Shown piece after piece: positions 5,225 to 64,000 of a stretch of 64,000 bases of DNA. The DNA is from Naegleria gruberi (lineage: Eukaryota). Below the pieces are notes generated by a model. The model searched no databases. It had not been told where the DNA came from and worked only from the letters and a program-made list of their open reading frames with translations. A program made the position numbers and the translations under genes. The first letter of the stretch is position 1, and the number at the start of each line of letters is the position of its first letter. The stretch lies in the NCBI GenBank assembly GCA_000004985.1, contig GG738849.1; one strand, written 5' to 3'.

Positions 5225-7636
5225 TTACTTTTTCGACAAAACTTTTTCGACAACACCTGCAGCAACAGTCTCGCCATTCACTCTAGCTGTTAAACGACCA
5301 AACTTGGCAAAATCAGCATACTTTTCAATTGAGATAGTATTATCAGTAACTATGGTTACAATAGCATTCGAATACTTTGGAATACATTTTGGTTTCTTTT
5401 CAAGTATTTCTAATTGCTTGTTTAAGGTACAAGTGAGTTTGGTAATTACAGCTGGAACATCAATGTTGTGCAAATGGAGAACAACATGAGCACCCTTAAT
5501 GATTGGTATCTTCATATCAAAGGTAGCAATTCTAGCCTTGAATCTATTTGTTACCTTAATTTCATTTCCAATAGGGCATAGAATTTGACCAACCATAAGC
5601 TTTTCTATATCAATAGATCCCAAACCAATTTCAACATTGTCACCAGCATAACCATGCTTGACAGGACTCTTATGACGAAGAATGGATTTAACTGTACAAA
5701 CTTCTCTAATTGGCATAATAACCAATTCGTCTCCTTCTGAGATAGTACCTGTTTCAATCTTACCAGCAACAGTAATACCAGTTGCCAATGATTTATAAAC
5801 ATCAGAAACCGACATTCTCAAGGCCTTTTCAATATCACGAGGTTTAGGTTCGAACTTGTCAATTCTTTCAACAACTGAAAGACCATCATACCATGAAATA
5901 GATCCTGATTTTGTGATCAAATTTTCTCCTTGAAGACCACTAGCAGGAATATAAAAAACATGACTACCGTCTTGAGTTTGGAATCCTATTTGTCTCATAA
6001 AGTCGTCCAATTGAGCTACAATACTATCATAACGTTCCTTTGACCATCCGATTGAGTCCAACTTGTTTACGACAACAATTACTTGTTCAACTCCCAAACT
6101 TCTAGCTAAAATCAAGTGTTCCTTAGTTTGACCTCCATTGGCAAATCCTGTTTCAAAACCACCAGGAGTTGAATCAATAACTAGAATAGCAAAGTCAGCT
6201 TGAGCAGCACCAGTAATCATTTTTGGAATAAAATCCTTGTGACCTGGGGCATCCAAAATGGTAACATGACGATTTGGTGTTTCGAAATATCGTACACCAA
6301 CATCCATTGTGACACCACGTTGTCTTTCCTCTTCATGTTCATCCATTACCCAAGCAAAGTGGAATGATGATTTACCAATTTCAACTGACTCCTTCTTGAA
6401 TTTACGTAAAGTATTCTCAGAAACATTTCCCAATTTGTAAAGTAAATGTCCCATCAAGGTTGATTTACCAGCATCAACGTGACCAATAATAACAACATTA
6501 ATACGCTTCTTTTCCTTATCCTCAGGAGCCTTGTGTTTAATACCAGAGGATTTAATTGGTTTTGGTGATTGTGGTTCCTTCTTTTCTGATTCATCAATAT
6601 CCATATCTAAAATTGTGGTATTCTTAGACTTATTCTTTTGAGGAGTTTGTTTCTTTTCAATTGGTTTAAAGTCCTCAAGAGGTTTGTGACTAGCTTTTTG
6701 TTGAGATCTAGCAGAACTAATGAGATCATCTGGAGATGGTGTGTCAAATTTAAAAAAATCAATTATAGGGGAAGAATTGGTGTTTGAATTATTAACATGT
6801 TTTTTGTTGTGGAGTATTTCATAATAGGGAGACAATCGTTCTGGAGAGTTTGCAAAAAATGACTTTACAAAGGATTCATTGGTGAGAGAGGTTGTAAGGC
6901 AACGACCAAAAGCTGATGCAACTGCTTGACCTGTTTCTTGATTCTTTTGATTTGACGAATCAGAGAGTGAGCTTTGTGAAAGCTTTTTGATAATTTCTCT
7001 TTCATCTTCACTCAAATCAGAATCATTATTGTCTAAATCTGTCTTGTTGGATTTTCTCATATTCTTCTTCTTGTTAGAAGAAACAGATCTGAGGTATTCT
7101 TCATCAGAGGACACTTCTTCCTCCGATGAGCTGATTGACTGTTGCACTTTTGGTGTTGATTTTACATCGCTTGGTGGTTGAGTGGAATTGGAAATTTTGG
7201 AACCTCTTCCTGCCGAGAGAGGAGTTGTGTTGTTATTATTATTACTGGAAGATGATGGTGTAGTGGTAGTAGAGTTATTATCTGATGTTGTTGGTGGTAT
7301 TGTAGAGGTTTCACTCTTTACGGTTATCACAGGCCCTGAATTATTCGTTCGCATCAATCCACCCCGTCCAGCACTTACTATTGGAGTTGATGATGATGTT
7401 GTTGTTGTTGTAGTTGTGGGTATATTACCACCACTCAACAGTGATGAACCTCTTCCGGCCGAATTATTGCTACTATTGTTTGCTATTGTGGAAACAACAA
7501 CTGGAGCACTGGAAATAACATTTCCTCTACCGATGCCAGCTACACTACTAACACTTGTTGGTTGTTGTTGATTGATGGTTGGTGAAGAATTGGCGTTTCC
7601 AAGAAGGAGCCCACCTCTTCCTCTACCAGCAGACAT
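5225..7636 (-). CDS. HBS1: HBS1-like translational GTPase (ribosome-rescue factor): GTPase and domains II/III, with a long S/T/N-rich N-terminal extension
   Basis: G1 motif is GHVDAGKST, G3 is DAPGHKDF and G4 is NKLD. The block LMGHLLYKLGNV..SFHFAWVMDEHEEERQRGVTMDV is closer to HBS1L than to eRF3 (from memory). The ATG at 7636 has the typical A-run context. It may instead be exon 4 of a larger gene (see 7773..8560). Confidence 0.85.
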   Translation of the reverse strand: MSAGRGRGGLLLGNANSSPTINQQQPTSVSSVAGIGRGNVISSAPVVVSTIANNSSNNSAGRGSSLLSGGNIPTTTTTTTSSSTPIVSAGRGGLMRTNNSGPVITVKSETSTIPPTTSDNNSTTTTPSSSSNNNNNTTPLSAGRGSKISNSTQPPSDVKSTPKVQQSISSSEEEVSSDEEYLRSVSSNKKKNMRKSNKTDLDNNDSDLSEDEREIIKKLSQSSLSDSSNQKNQETGQAVASAFGRCLTTSLTNESFVKSFFANSPERLSPYYEILHNKKHVNNSNTNSSPIIDFFKFDTPSPDDLISSARSQQKASHKPLEDFKPIEKKQTPQKNKSKNTTILDMDIDESEKKEPQSPKPIKSSGIKHKAPEDKEKKRINVVIIGHVDAGKSTLMGHLLYKLGNVSENTLRKFKKESVEIGKSSFHFAWVMDEHEEERQRGVTMDVGVRYFETPNRHVTILDAPGHKDFIPKMITGAAQADFAILVIDSTPGGFETGFANGGQTKEHLILARSLGVEQVIVVVNKLDSIGWSKERYDSIVAQLDDFMRQIGFQTQDGSHVFYIPASGLQGENLITKSGSISWYDGLSVVERIDKFEPKPRDIEKALRMSVSDVYKSLATGITVAGKIETGTISEGDELVIMPIREVCTVKSILRHKSPVKHGYAGDNVEIGLGSIDIEKLMVGQILCPIGNEIKVTNRFKARIATFDMKIPIIKGAHVVLHLHNIDVPAVITKLTCTLNKQLEILEKKPKCIPKYSNAIVTIVTDNTISIEKYADFAKFGRLTARVNGETVAAGVVEKVLSKK

Positions 7637-23978: not shown

Positions 23979-24479
23979 TGTAATTTAAGGTTTTGGAGCC
24001 TTCCTAAAAGGGATGATGAGAAAGTGATGGCCGAAAGGTGTGACCTGAATGGCTGTGGATTGGCTACAAGTGGAAAGGATGGTAGACAATTAGTCTATGC
24101 TGAGAAGTTGTGGAAAAGGACATGGCTTTAACCAATTCCAAATTGTTGCAAGTCAAGGAAATTCAAACAATTTCATGAACTATCTCAATTGTACTTCAAA
24201 TTTTCAAACTATTCCAGTAGCACAGTTCAGTTGTGAAATCAGAACCTCAATCTCCTTAAACATCTCAAAAACCCCTCCATCAACATTCAAAGCGATCAGT
24301 CACCACGGATAATAGCAAACATAGTTTAGGAACTGTCTTCATTTTCATTGGACTGAAAATAAGAAAAAAAATAGCAACCTTAACCTTGAAATTAACCCCC
24401 AAACAATTCAAAATTAATAAAACAACTCTCCGTTAGGTCAAATTCAATTAAGAATTTTTGATTGAAAAGTTGAAAAAAA

Positions 24480-59039: not shown

Positions 59040-61010
59040 TTGGTTTCTTACTTCTAAATCAAATGAAAGATCTATTGTAGGATCCAGAATGCTTTCAATC
59101 GTTGCTATGAGATATTGTGTAGATTCCAACGAGCAATCCAGCATTTTACGTTTATGGCACAACACGAACAATCAGTGGATGATTAATTTTCTCCAGAATC
59201 TTCTTTGAAGAATCCAACAAGTTGTCACTAAGCATGGAGTAATTCTTCACTTCTGAAAGAGCTTGAAGAATATCTCTCAATATTTGAATACAGAACAGAC
59301 CTGGATCAGAAAAATTATGATCGTAAAGTTGACGCTCTGAAAGAAGTTTTTCTGTGACTGTTATTATATAATCATTGCTAACGTTTTACACAAAAAATTA
59401 CTCTCAATATGTTTTACAATATTCATGGCGTCCTGATTTTCATATCTTTTTTCGGATAATTTGAAGAAAATGTTGCATTGATTTTTCATTTCTCCATGAC
59501 CATAAATTTGCCTACTTCCTTCGCAATCGATTTCAGCATTCTTAATGCCATACTTTTCTAACGTACTAATATCGAATTGTAGAATATCTTTTTTAGATTT
59601 CGAATTATTCTCAGGTGTGTGGATTAACATGTCGTCTTTAATTTGAAGGGATAGCATTTCCTGATTAAGAATATTTAAATCATCTTGTAGCATTGCCTTA
59701 AAACAAAACATATCTAAATTAAGTAATAACAAGACAGTAAACTGTTTTTTATCTCACCAAAAAAATAACAAACACCATACCCAATAATGATTGTGTTATC
59801 ACTCAACTCTGTCTCACCTTTAGAAAAAATGGAGGTTCACGACCACCCAAATATCTTTCTTGAATTGAATAGTTGGCCTCTGGCAAGGAAATGAAATTTT
59901 GAAACGATCTCAAGTTAGATGTACGATGAACTTTTTGCATACTATCTTTGATATCTTTCATGTCGAGATGTCAATTCCACCATTTTACTATAGACTTTTG
60001 ACGTTGTATCATAAAGTGTACTCCAACTCGCTCATTTTCCTTATAATCTACCTAGAATTGTATCACACAGTTATGGCATCTGTACTAGTTTTGAAACAAT
60101 TCATACCCTCTCATTCAGTCAATCAGGAAATGCTCAATGTCAACAATGTTTATCCATTTGAACACTCCATCTCAGAAAAAGTTCATCCAATGAGATACGA
60201 GTTTTTATTGTTACGGGTAGCATATACAATCAGAATTCAACATCTCAACAACGAAACCAGATCTAATCTTTAGTCAATAAAGTTGAAAACAACCATCTTG
60301 TTATGGCTTCTGCAGTTCTGTCATCTTTTAGTCTTAGTTTTTCAAAAGCATGTCCAATCTTGGCTTCGTCATCTCCATTAAAACCTATCAATGCGGCCAC
60401 AATGATTTCCAGGTCAGAACCTTCCGTATCATTGGCATCTTTTGCTCTATTTTGCTTAGTCCAACACCACTGAAGCAGTTAACAATTCTTGGATGGACTC
60501 AACTGACCATGTGGAACAAGTATCCATATCTAATTGGTGCTGTCTCATTCTGAAAATTCCTGTTTTCCTTTTTAGAGTTTGGATTTTGGAGAAAGGATTT
60601 TCTTTTTTAAAGTATTTTCGTTTGTTCTATTGATTGTTTTATATTCCTTACTTCCTTCAGATAGACCTTCTGTAGATGAACTTTCCACTTCTGGTATGAG
60701 TTTTACAACTTCTTCCCCAAGAAATCAACAGGATACTTGGACACCCAACTATCATATAAAAGCTCCATAAATTCTTTCAACCTAGATATGCTTCTTGAAA
60801 ATAAGTGTACCTGAAGGGAAGTCTCTGCCATTTTGTTTTTATTAGATGGTGTGCAATCTGTTCGATAAACTTGCCCATAAACATGGGCTTGTATTGCAAA
60901 TGCTCTTATTGTTCTTTTGGCTTGTTTTCCTCCAGGAACGTAAATAGCTAGTGTGAAATGGGTGGGTATTTCATACGTAACAGAAACTTGCTTGTTATCT
61001 CCATTTAGAA
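59040..61010 (-). other. unresolved minus-strand coding potential (one or two intron-rich orphan genes, or decayed gene fragments)
   Basis: Protein-like segments lie in shifting frames. Examples are LNGDNKQVSVTYEIPTHFTLAIYVPGGKQAKRTIRAFAIQAHVYG.., ..AKDANDTEGSDLEIIVAALIGFNGDDEAKIGHAFEKLRL.., ..ERYLGGREPPFFLK|GTGAGA.. and AMLQDDLNILNQEMLSLQIKDD... I could link some through GT-AG introns, but I could not build a complete model or recognise a family. Confidence 0.2.
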
Positions 61011-61679
61011 GCTAGACATGCCGTGGGCCATGGTAGTAGTTGTATTTTTTTTTGTGTTAAAAATACATACCAACCGTAGTCTCCTTAGTTAACAGTCTAT
61101 TACTACAGGAGTTTCAAATGATGAATTGGATGTTGAATATCAGCAAGTTTCTAATTAAATAATAATAAAACTCATTATACACAAACACTACTTCAAAGGC
61201 ACGGTCATGATTCAATAGAATTTACTGACAAAGAAACATGCTGGCACTTCATGAAACATTCAATAAGAAGATTTTCTCTCCAAACTTAATGCCAGGTTTT
61301 GAGATACTGGTGGGCTTTGAATTTAACGAAAATGATTTGCATGTTGTTTGCCTTCTTGATGTGTTTTGAAGCTAAGGGAGTAGTGCACAATTTCCTTTTT
61401 GCTTAAAATATTTACCTCAAAACGGCATGGTAACTATTGACGATGTGGAATGGGAGTCTTCTTTTCATTGAAGGACTAACCACTTTCTGCTTGCATTGTA
61501 AAATCTCTAAACCTAAAAATAACTTCAAATACAAGATTGAAACAACAAAACCTTCAAATCCAAAAATACATATTCTAATTTTAAATTCAAACCAAAAAAA
61601 ACAACTTTTTGTGTAAACCTACTCGTTAAATTGCCTCTTTTGCAAAACGAAAATATAATTAAACCTATTAATTTCAAAA

Positions 61680-63093
61680 ATGATGATTAACAATACTATT
61701 AACGCTCAAGACAATATTGCTCTCTACAAGTACAAGCAACAATTAGAACAATTGGAAAATTGCAAAGGCTTGGGAACATCTGTTATTACCTTGTTGGTTA
61801 GTTGCAAGACTTCATTGACTCAAGTTATTTCTCAAATGGATCAACGTTTGACAAAGTCTAACAATATCAAGTCGTGTATTTAACAGGAATAGTGTTCAAG
61901 TGGCTACAAGGACTGTTATATCCAGATTAAAGCTATTGAAACAGACACCTGCTAATGGTTTGGCAATTTTCTGTGGAATGGTAAATCCAGATTCTGCTCC
62001 AGGTTTATTCTCTGATGATGAATCTAGTTTGGTGGTTGATAACGGTTTAGAAGGCTCTGACAATAATGCACATGTTGATTTGAAGAAATTGTGTGTTATG
62101 ATTGAACCACCAAATCCAATTGACAGCAATCTTTACTATTGTGACGATTGTTTCCATGTTGAACAGTTGAGAAGTCAATTGCAAGAATTTAATTCTGGAA
62201 AAACTTATGGTGTAATTGTTATTACAGGTACAGGTACTTTGTATGGTACTTTACGTGGAAATACCAGTAGTATTTTACGTGAATTTTCTCATGAACTTCC
62301 AAAGAAACATTCTAAGGGAGGTCAATCTCGTGAAAGATTTGCTAGAAATAGAGAAATTGCCAAGAATGAATATCTCAAGATTATTGCAGAGAAGGCAAAT
62401 GGTTTATTCGTTTCTTCAGCTCTCAATGCTCCAACTGTTGATGCTATTATTCTTGCTGGATGTGCAGAATTGAAGAATGAATTACTTTCTCTCAAATCTG
62501 ATTGTTTAGACTATAGATTGAGAACTAGAATTTTAACTGTTGTTGATGTTGCATATGGTGGCAGACCTGGATTTTATCAAGCTATTCAACTTGCACAAAA
62601 TGAAATTCAAGATTCTAGATTCTTGGAAGAGAGTGAAACCATTCAAGAGCTATTGAATTTACTTTCCAAAGGATCCAAGGCTGTTGTTGGTTTGGAAGAA
62701 ACCATGTTTGCTATTGCAAGTGGTTGGGCTAGTAAGGTAATCTTGTGCGAAAAGCAATCATCCTTGAAGAGAGTTACACTCTCTGATGATTCTGTTCACT
62801 ATTTGGAAGAAGACAAGATTAAATTCTTATTGGAAAGAAATTCTGTCAAGGTTGCTAGAATTGAAAACCTTATTGATTATTTAGTTGACAATTACAAGAA
62901 AATTGGTATTGACAAGTTGTCTCTTGTTACTGATTGTACTAATGAGGGAAATATGTTTTTGAAGGGCTTCTCAGGTATTGGTGCTATTCTAAAGTTTGAT
63001 GTAAATGTTGCCTCTCTTCTCTCTGAGGAGAAGGATAACTTTGAAGCTTTTGAAGAGGAAGCCTACAATGAAGACTTGTCCGAATTCTACTAA
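61680..63093 (+). CDS. ETF1: divergent eRF1-family release factor encoded in two frames (frame 0 at 61680..61883, frame +1 from 61852/61882 to 63093)
   Basis: Frame 0 encodes ..GLGTSVITLL..TKSNNIKS-CI-TAA. Frame +1 encodes NRNSVQVATRTVISRLKLLKQTPANGLAIFCG..LYYCDDCFHVEQL (YxCxxxF)..LPKKHSKGGQSRERFAR (GGQ)..VDVAYGGRPGFYQAIQLA..NYKKIGIDKLSLVTDCTNEGNMFLKGFSGIGAILKF. Gapless alignment to canonical eRF1 needs exactly a +1 shift between 61875 and 61881. Confidence 0.8.
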
Positions 63094-63228
63094 ATGGATT
63101 AGAAAGTATATTAAGGATGAATTACAAATTAGATCCTTCAATTATTTGAACAACAACAAAATAAACTACAATTGTGTGAAGAATATTTTTTTGGCTTCTG
63201 CTGAATGGATAGCTATTGAGGGGTTAAG

Positions 63229-63242
63229 AAATGGCGCCATAG
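63229..63242. promoter_or_regulatory. W-run/GGCGCC motif (E2F-like site)
   Basis: AAATGGCGCCATAG, with GGCGCC at 63233..63238, about 64 bp upstream of ATG 63300. Confidence 0.35.
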
Positions 63243-63299
63243 TTAGTTAATCGTTGTATCTGTCTAAACATACAATGTCTAATAACAACTTTAAAAAAA

Positions 63300-63695
63300 A
63301 TGTCTGAAATTGTATATTCTGTTATGGAGTACTTGTTGGATGAACAATTCGGTGATGCTGTAGGTAAATTAAAAACATGATTCTAAATAATGGATGATAA
63401 GGTAGAAGAGTTCGGTAATAAGCACTGTGATATCTTTGAAATTGATGAAGAAGAACAAAAATTGGAATATACAAATGTATACAACAAATTCGTAAAGCTT
63501 TTTGAATCCAAAGTTGAAGAATTGCTTAAACAAAAGGGAGTCACACCTCAAGAATTTTATATTGAATGTAAAAGATTGTCTGAGGAAGAAAACGATCAAG
63601 AAATTGTAGAGTTCTTGTTAGCACTTTCAGATTATCAAGTATTTTACAACATGATGAAGGAAATCAAGTTGAGAAAACTAGGAAAACAACAATAA
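63300..63695 (+). CDS. BART-domain protein (ARL2BP/CFAP36-like)
   Basis: Exon 1 is 63300..63359 (MSEIVYSVMEYLLDEQFGDA). A 42-nt GTAGGT..AAG intron spans 63360..63401. Exon 2 is 63402..63695 (VEEFGNKHCDIFEIDEEEQKLEYTNVYNKFVKLFESKVEELL..EFLLALSDYQVFYNMM). The pattern is typical of the ARL2-binding BART fold. Confidence 0.6.
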
Positions 63696-63851
63696 AACCA
63701 TTGTATTTTTAATAATTTATTATCATCATTGAGTAAGGAATTAGAGTAGTACGTTTATTGAATAAATGAAAAGAAATTAAAGGAATGGTACAGAATATTC
63801 TGTAACTTCTCACTCTATCTCAAAGTTGTAGAATGTTGTTATCAAAGTCTA

Positions 63852-64000
63852 CTAAGGGACGTTTGTAACAAAATTTTCATTCATCAACCTGTCATCCCAG
63901 AGTGATATCAATGTGTCGTTGATGCAGTAATGTATGCCTTGTTGATTCCGATACTGTACAATTAGAAGTAATCAAAATTAATAGGTGTCACTTCTGATGA
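63852..64000 (-). CDS. 3' end of an unidentified gene that continues past the right edge
   Basis: The terminal exon is 63953..63852 (YRNQQGIHYCINDTLISLWDDRLMNENFVTNVP-TAG). It is preceded by a possible 38-nt GTGACA..CAG intron at 63991..63954. Confidence 0.25.

Follow-up and report, generated by a model that had tools for sequence, protein, structure and literature searches.

The gene for the release factor eRF1 in Naegleria gruberi is divided between two overlapping reading frames by an in-frame stop codon, and its full-length product is probably made by a programmed +1 ribosomal frameshift at this shifty stop. The gene lies near the end of a 64,000-nucleotide (nt) stretch of contig GG738849.1 (assembly GCA_000004985.1), which is called the window here. 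That a ribosomal +1 shift is required for full-length eRF1 is highly probable, and autoregulation of eRF1 is its somewhat favoured purpose. Naegleria eRF1 looks like the first cellular eukaryotic counterpart of the self-regulating frameshift of bacterial release factor 2 (RF2, gene prfB). Frameshifting of this kind is already known; what is new here is a shifty-stop +1 frameshift in the nuclear eRF1 gene of cellular eukaryotes, at a new and strongly conserved position.

Frame 0 opens at the ATG at 61680, reads ..QMDQRLTKSNNIKSCI, and ends at the TAA at 61881-83, with no internal stop before it. The product of this open reading frame (ORF0) is MMINN...SNNIKSCI, and its final codons are AAC AAT ATC AAG TCG TGT ATT TAA. 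The +1 frame is open from 61852; from the AAC at 61882 it encodes NRNSVQVATRTVISRLKLLKQTPANGLAIFCG, a run of 403 codons terminating at the TAA at 63091-93. The shift region (61869-61884) is AAG TCG TGT ATT TAA C. Extended past 61883, frame 0 meets 53 stops. The coordinates, sequences, and two-frame layout had been described in a first-pass annotation of the window, and a recheck of the window sequence and translations bore all of them out. The features of the gene are listed below (^ marks the junction between the two frames).

61680..61880, + strand: ORF0, eRF1 codons 1-67, in frame 0; it holds the GTS loop and NIKS (61863-61874).
61866..61884, + strand: conserved candidate cis-element AUC AAG UCG UGU AUU UAA C, made up of the heptamer and about 12 nt upstream, with conserved synonymous positions.
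61878..61884, + strand: putative shift heptamer A-UU-UAA-C, with the P-site codon AUU (Ile67), the in-frame stop UAA, and then C.
61881..61881, + strand: the single U predicted to be skipped, base 1 of UAA; NIKS-C-I^N-R-N-S-V aligns to canonical eRF1 without a gap.
61882..63090, + strand: +1-frame part, codons 68-470 (NRNSVQ...EDLSEFY), with YxCxxxF, GGQ, domains M and C, and the acidic tail.
63091..63094, + strand: genuine terminator UAA-A; TAA-A is found in all 12 compared loci with a readable next base.

Joined by skipping one nucleotide, the two halves give a protein of 470 amino acids (aa). It matches Pfam eRF1_1, eRF1_2, and eRF1_3 above the gathering scores (E-values 1e-7, 1.6e-30, and 9e-12) and human eRF1 structures in phmmer (5e-72). 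The fused protein is collinear with human eRF1 residues 7-101 and then 108-422, and the alignment is gap-free across the junction, as the first-pass annotation had stated for a single skipped nucleotide. GTSVITL, NNIKS (61860-61874), YYCDDCF (62134-62154), and KGGQS (GGQ at 62317-62325) are present, all in invariant alignment columns, and the protein has a complete C domain and an acidic C-terminal tail (..NEDLSEFY). An AlphaFold model (27 sequences) has pLDDT of 86-91 for residues 51-100, and one helix (66-85) spans the junction Ile67^Asn68. Identity to canonical eRF1s is 35-39%, in agreement with the earlier description of the protein as unusually divergent. The three-domain architecture, the stop-recognition motifs, and GGQ mark the predicted fused product as an eRF1-type release factor, and release activity is predicted for it. 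The trans-frame Lys-C peptide across the junction, as deduced from the fused frames, is SCINRNSVQVATRTVISRLK. Three word-indexed protein searches for eRF1 were made with no taxon restriction, the last of them dominated by canonical eRF1s (5380 matches). Among the named species (N. gruberi, N. fowleri, N. lovaniensis, and Willaertia magna) only the split gene turned up in these searches, which do not enumerate Naegleria proteins.

Orthologous loci were retrieved via truncated annotated proteins. The core comparison comprises 13 loci, to which two others were added: L141 and L025, a contig of an N. gruberi-like strain from a separate Illumina metagenome assembly (ERZ929261). An N-UU-UAA-C site is present at the same codon in all of them, with the following sequences.

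N. lovaniensis: AAG TCG AGT CTT TAA C AGG.
L002, N. fowleri-type (its cluster includes XP_044561269): AAG TCG AGT CTT TAA C AGG.
L003, an 86% relative: AAA TCG TGC CTT TAA C AGG.
L005 and L006, two metagenome contigs at 60% identity: AAG TCG TGT ATT TAA C CGT.
W. magna: AAG TCT AGT CTT TAA C AGG.
L008-L012, a distant clade at 40-44% identity: AAG TCG AGT GTT TAA C, then AGA, CGG, or CGT.
L141: ATA AAG TCT AGT CTT TAA C CGT, with TAA-A as the genuine stop.

Every orthologue examined is split in this way and at this codon, a recurrence that puts the pattern far beyond chance. The ERZ929261 contig has an identical ATT TAA C, with 3 single-nucleotide differences in 361 nt. A recount of the T run in independent material, one of the checks proposed in the first-pass annotation, thus gave the same number; another of its checks, on orthologues, found both the shift heptamer and the frame overlap conserved. 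In W. magna the +1 frame opens just 9 nt before the stop, and the shift is therefore confined to the last three to four codons. Neighbouring genes, Laminin_G_3/C2 upstream and RTC downstream, are common to the N. lovaniensis and N. fowleri-type loci; the Naegleria eRF1 gene is nuclear and in conserved synteny. A second W. magna copy (L007; JBEGDK010000067, 2900-3700) has the same CTT TAA C along with extra homopolymer frame disruptions (..KGNHRNKIL.., ..HSKRRSIKRK..); it is a duplicate in decay or else a haplotig carrying indel errors from long reads.

Selection was evaluated for each half in its own frame (frame 0 upstream, +1 downstream). The ratio of nonsynonymous to synonymous substitution rates (dN/dS) is mostly 0.1-0.3, with dS mostly 0.4-1.4; between N. 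gruberi and L003 it is 0.11 for the ORF0 part and 0.12 for the +1 part. These low values upstream and downstream indicate that both parts are translated in their own frames. Sequences anchored on the stop align without gaps, and the third base of the P-site codon, the extra T, and the C of AAC never vary. The P-site codon among orthologues is ATT, CTT, or GTT (Ile, Leu, or Val), and the Arg codon directly after AAC varies synonymously (AGG, AGA, CGT, CGG).

Constraint at the site also acts on synonymous positions. The seven codons from -5 to +1 rank 1 of 367 for synonymous codon identity (0.80 vs. 0.51 gene-wide), and identity is 0.1-0.3 at codons +2 to +16. The UCG of NIKS is the sole UCG among 31-48 Ser codons in six of ten genes (1 of 41 in N. 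gruberi), and in the N. gruberi eRF1 gene ATC accounts for 6% of Ile codons and AAC for 21% of Asn codons. The first-pass annotation had proposed that the internal stop is in a poor termination context, and the comparison agrees: at every site found without constraining the stop (15 loci) the internal stop is UAA-C, whereas the genuine stop is UAA-A at 12/12 readable positions among the compared loci. Apparent stop contexts of the long ORFs in the window point the same way, with TAAA the commonest (10/28) and TAAC the rarest (1/28). This pattern suggests a cis-element of about 19 nt, AUC AAG UCG NGB NUU UAA C, in which the conserved 12 nt upstream of the heptamer probably stimulate the shift. 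A purine-rich Shine-Dalgarno-like stimulator was not found upstream of the site, and an informal comparison of the upstream element with the conserved 3' end of 18S rRNA, not taken from Naegleria, showed no convincing complementarity.

Split eRF1 genes are also found in environmental sequences. The site pattern ATHAARTCNNNNNTTTAACMGNNNNWSNGT was scanned over viral and metagenome contigs. The set it retrieves is biased (UAA, UCN, and two P-site U's are required) and is silent on the frequency of eRF1 genes that lack the site. Viral contigs gave four matches, none of them eRF1 (0/4), and metagenome contigs gave 111, of which 66 are eRF1 genes split at this codon. The 66 genes (L032-L140) form at least 35 clusters at 65% identity. 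Most of them encode the canonical ..[N/Q]IKSRV^NR[Q/L]SV.., and therefore one extra U is their sole departure from an ordinary eRF1. Their P-site codons are GUU (56), AUU (6), and CUU (4), and genuine stops in the pattern-retrieved genes are TAAA (41), TAAG (5), and TGAG (2). Where Arg precedes the P-site codon, it is encoded by CGC, CGU, or CGG (60 of 60), and AGA/AGG encodes the Arg after AAC in 53 of 66 genes; the Naegleria group has AGU, UGU, or UGC ahead of the P-site codon. The restricted choice of upstream Arg codons (N-G-B) is a further sign of nucleotide-level constraint upstream. An exhaustive profile search yielded further 50%-identity representatives with ORFs starting exactly past the junction. 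The ..SRAFNRQSV.. of one of these representatives is what the +1 frame gives when read across NTT TAA C. L141, listed above, comes from this group of representatives.

Many of the environmental contigs resemble messages. Fifty-three are shorter than 1.7 kb, mRNA-sized with very short untranslated regions; AATAAA is present in many, and a poly(A) end in several. Among the orthologues, L003 keeps the stop, and its contig ends in AATAAA followed by a run of A. We infer that the mRNA-sized contigs are transcripts; if so, mature mRNAs retain the stop.

Cluster look-ups for the split genes named only N. fowleri and N. gruberi. A rough neighbour-joining tree places the frameshifted genes in at least three groups, interspersed with uninterrupted canonical eRF1s; it fits repeated gains or an old origin with losses and is too rough to be decisive between them. 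The chances are about even that several deep microbial eukaryote lineages and some giant viruses use a +1 shift two codons past NIKS (N-UU-UAA-C) as a widespread and ancient, and probably self-limiting, mode of expressing eRF1. Five contigs (L033, L052, L095, L108, and L136) carry short, C-terminally truncated eRF1-like genes with a NIKS-adjacent GUU/AUU-UAA-C shift. They are dense, intronless, and AT-rich, with ankyrin-repeat, SNF2-helicase, and GH18 genes as neighbours, and are probably giant viruses; their shift position is unlike that inferred for Mimivirus R726. In another contig (L050; JGI24216J29974_1007609, 3033 nt) the +1 ORF runs for 885 codons, about 480 past the normal end of eRF1; a fusion, the absence of a stop, or chimerism of the contig could account for this length.

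UAA-C is reported to be among the most frameshift-prone tetranucleotides in yeast (PMC3521657) and to be a poor termination context. From the split architecture, its conservation, and the selection on both halves, we infer a slippage mechanism, its efficiency, and a feedback as follows. The ribosome would read ORF0 to Ile67, with AUU in the P site. UAA-C would then enter the A site, where decoding depends on eRF1. While the A site awaits eRF1, the peptidyl-tRNA could re-pair from AUU to UUU, with codon positions 2 and 3 still paired; where CUU is in the P site, the first position could also form a G-U pair, as in prfB. Asn-tRNA would decode AAC, and translation would proceed for 403 codons in the +1 frame. 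The conserved 12 nt or so upstream (AUC AAG UCG NGB) would lie in the E site and the mRNA exit region, where the Shine-Dalgarno sequence of prfB acts. The invariant UU-U with a variable first base (A, C, G) favours P-site slippage, because pure A-site occlusion would not require these bases.

The competitor of the shift would be the product of the gene itself, and negative feedback follows logically from this. High eRF1 would lead to termination at UAA and release of a 67-aa fragment, and low eRF1 would lead to more shifting and more eRF1, as in bacterial prfB. Because the early stop precedes the genuine one by about 1.2 kb, the message could also be open to nonsense-mediated decay (NMD), a second layer of feedback that would act on the mRNA itself. 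The occurrence of SMG1 and SMG9 in N. gruberi has been reported (PMC5709506).

Several points weigh against a programmed and regulatory shift. For N. gruberi itself the support is comparative sequence evidence. Re-pairing of AUU or GUU on UUU leaves a first-position mismatch. No conserved RNA structure was found downstream of the site with RNAalifold (10 sequences, -0.34 kcal/mol, no meaningful covariation), a single-sequence fold downstream of the site revealed no stimulatory structure (z = -0.3), and Rfam had no match at E <= 1 in 61000-64000. If Naegleria also has a canonical eRF1, the feedback could act on total eRF1 activity, and this gene could be specialised. A further objection is that a real +1 shift may be constitutive and have no regulatory role, having begun as a one-base insertion (GUU-AAC to GUU-U-AAC) in a shift-prone context that was neutrally fixed. 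This is unlikely, but it accommodates the lack of a detected structured stimulator and the canonical NIKSRV^NR reading of most environmental genes, which differ by one extra U alone; Euplotes is a documented case of shifty stops fixed neutrally (PMC10235951). A neutral insertion fits less well with a site that has been kept across very deep divergence, with synonymous constraint around it, and with a strict contrast between internal UAA-C and genuine UAA-A. In addition, of the genes whose relatives were examined, only the one coding for the stop-reading protein has the site, and no other homology-supported shifted gene was seen within the 64-kb window.

The other explanations place the extra base outside translation or deny a full-length product. 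Correction of the frame at the RNA level, by a micro-intron, U-deletion editing, or transcriptional slippage on the T run, is very improbable. The first-pass annotation had seen no plausible intron, and this held up: the sole frame-restoring GT..AG span at the site is 16 nt (61871-61886). Although this span is present in N. gruberi and several relatives, it would delete S-C-I-N-R, three of whose five residues are invariant, and it is absent in L005/L006, L009, and L010 (TAACCG..); a micro-intron was rejected on these grounds. The TTT is far shorter than known transcriptional slippage runs, the residues flanking the stop on both sides are conserved in their respective frames, and the stop is retained in L003, with its AATAAA and A run, and in dozens of mRNA-sized contigs, several with poly(A). 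Homopolymers such as this TTT are error-prone, but a sequencing or assembly indel is scarcely credible when the ERZ929261 assembly is identical and the extra base recurs in more than ten other assemblies, from different species and technologies, and in 66 metagenomic contigs. The remaining alternative, a decaying pseudogene or two polypeptides (an N-terminal fragment and a C-terminal protein from an internal AUG), could draw on the public annotation, which begins at an internal Met, and on the extra frame disruptions of the W. magna copy L007. It has almost nothing left in its favour given dN/dS of 0.1-0.3 in both parts, and a product without NIKS would miss the canonical stop-recognition motif of eRF1. 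A split protein is excluded because no downstream Met position is conserved, while protein-level conservation extends over the +1 codons that separate the stop from the first Met (N-R-x-S-V...), with N-R-x-S-V itself invariant. The conserved site, selection, synonymous constraint, contrast in stop context, and mRNA-like contigs thus strongly support the original proposal of a programmed +1 shift at AUU-UAA-C over an indel, a pseudogene, or an intron.

In bacteria, the prfB gene for RF2 is shifted at CUU-UGA-C. Both this gene and Naegleria eRF1 encode a class-I release factor and carry, near the start, an in-frame stop read by the encoded factor. In both, the P-site codon ends in UU and re-pairs, or would re-pair, on UUU, C follows the stop, the rest of the gene is in the +1 frame, and the site is phylogenetically widespread. 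The CUU-UAA-C of N. fowleri, N. lovaniensis, and W. magna differs from the Escherichia coli heptamer only in the stop codon. There are also differences. prfB has a Shine-Dalgarno/anti-Shine-Dalgarno stimulator 3 nt upstream, which eukaryotic ribosomes lack, whereas Naegleria has about 12 conserved nt (AUC AAG UCG NGB). The prfB-like layout claimed in the first-pass annotation therefore stands for the order of stop, heptamer, and frame, but not for a prfB-type stimulator. The stop in prfB is the RF2-specific UGA at codon 26, whereas in Naegleria it is UAA at codon 68, in the stop-recognition domain, and the feedback established for prfB is a predicted one in Naegleria. RF2 and eRF1 are reported as structurally unrelated protein families (PMC6514570), which makes the resemblance convergent.

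Giant viruses provide the only precedent in the protein family. Mimiviridae eRF1-type genes (Mimivirus R726, Megavirus mg280, klosneuviruses, and tupanviruses) combine UGA-C readthrough with a CUU-UAG/UAA-C +1 frameshift (PMC3521657, PMC6582330). They share with Naegleria the eRF1/aRF1-type family and the type of heptamer, which is exact in Megavirus (CUU-UAA-C), and an internal stop in poor context with a genuine stop in good context. The viral genes have an extra upstream UGA-C readthrough, whereas ORF0 of Naegleria has no internal stop, and the viral proteins are without the mini-domain and C-terminal tail, whereas the Naegleria protein has a full-length C domain and an acidic tail and its gene is in nuclear synteny. 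Mimivirus R726 has 30% identity to the Naegleria protein over 236 aa. In the R726 sequence of Fig S7, the protein is continuous through ..APNIKNKQLRKSV.., and some 50 residues past NIK is an L-S junction that would fit CUU-U-AGC and a P2 product of 25-30 kDa; this is the apparent place of the shift. The viral site would therefore not be homologous to the Naegleria site. A common origin with giant-virus eRF1 was considered and rejected: the eRF1 genes that protein patterns retrieved from IMG/VR are uninterrupted and of canonical form, none of the four viral matches to the site pattern is an eRF1, and the R726 shift appears to be elsewhere. The first-pass annotation was correct for the N. gruberi gene but overlooked both the giant-virus precedent and the occurrence of the site beyond one gene and species. 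Jeudy et al. noted that the eukaryotic class-I release factors they compared contain no internal stop codons.

In plants, eRF1-1 is autoregulated by stop-codon readthrough and NMD (PMC5397192). The same paper counts three independent inventions of release-factor autoregulation, in bacteria, giant viruses, and plants (PMC5397192). Like the proposed Naegleria system, the plant one is a negative feedback loop on eRF1 in a eukaryote, and sensing takes place at a stop codon of the eRF1 message. It differs in that readthrough takes place at the normal stop and is combined with a 3' untranslated region intron and NMD; there is no frameshift, and the coding sequence is uninterrupted.

In eukaryotes, antizyme (UCC-UGA-U) and yeast Ty1/ABP140 (CUU-AGG-C) undergo programmed +1 frameshifting where the A-site codon is slow to be decoded; in antizyme the shift is autoregulatory and takes place at a stop codon. 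In these systems the sensor is polyamines or a rare tRNA, not a release factor, and antizyme has a 3' pseudoknot and a 5' element, whereas no conserved structure was found in Naegleria. Euplotes (AAA-UAA/UAG), also a eukaryote, likewise shifts into the +1 frame at internal UAA codons. However, Euplotes sites are non-regulatory, occur in thousands of genes, are about 100% efficient, and are linked to position-dependent termination; the motif in Naegleria is NUU instead of AAA, and only the eRF1 gene is affected within the Naegleria window. Of the NTT-stop sites that a scan picked out in the window for their open frames before and after, the eRF1 site was the sole one with homology support. An exact CTTTAAC is also present at 24126-24132 (+ strand), flanked by open frames of 73 codons (frame 0, upstream) and 60 codons (+1, downstream); the translations are of low complexity with no evident domain, no domain search having been made, and this site is probably due to chance. 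In a 2023 overview of frameshifting, antizyme and prfB are the sole regulatory paradigms named (PMC10235951). No report of a frameshift in a cellular eukaryotic eRF1 gene was found in the literature, for which full-text coverage was incomplete, and an earlier description elsewhere is possible.

Gene models for Naegleria eRF1 are affected by the frameshift. Gene callers split the gene into two ORFs or add an intron that removes the NIKS region (N. fowleri, W. magna), and the public models are wrong because of the frameshift. The +1 ORF of N. gruberi is 100% identical to XP_002681657.1/D2V2K9 (371 aa), named "eukaryotic peptide chain release factor subunit 1"; this model and that of N. lovaniensis begin at an internal Met. 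Through an invented intron, the N. fowleri model XP_044561269.1 drops 36 residues and the W. magna model about 19, including NIKS in both cases. Annotation errors are thus exposed in three entries, the truncated XP_002681657 and the N. fowleri XP_044561269 and W. magna models without NIKS. If the shift is as widespread as the environmental genes suggest, public annotations systematically mis-model such eRF1 genes by truncation or by splicing out NIKS.

Two other genes in the window were examined. Downstream of eRF1, 63301-63695 (+ strand) encodes an ARL2-binding BART-domain protein (Pfam 2.4e-19), with an apparent short intron separating the first ATG (63301) from the main exon. This gene also follows eRF1 in the N. 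gruberi-like contig L025, and N. lovaniensis and N. fowleri have the RTC gene in its place. At 5225-7636 (- strand) is an 803-aa translational GTPase whose best solved relative is human HBS1L (2.9e-138, vs. about 1e-97 for eRF3a). It is thus identified as Hbs1, the partner of the eRF1 paralogue Pelota, and its proximity to the eRF1 gene, 55 kb away, is probably a coincidence.

Control of the eRF1 level in eukaryotes is poorly understood, and little is known outside plants, where it involves readthrough and NMD. A self-regulating frameshift in Naegleria eRF1 would represent convergent regulatory logic between unrelated release-factor families. It also bears on the debate over the origin of the recoded release factors of giant viruses. 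With a compact, phylogenetically defined cassette of about 20 nt and no obvious RNA structure, this eukaryotic +1 site could be useful for the study of 80S shifting at stops and for reporters of termination efficiency. If the shift proves to be a widespread and ancient mode of eRF1 expression, shifty-stop autoregulation of release factors arose in bacteria, viruses, and cellular eukaryotes. For Naegleria, the site offers a handle on termination homeostasis, and the pathogen N. fowleri carries the same site.

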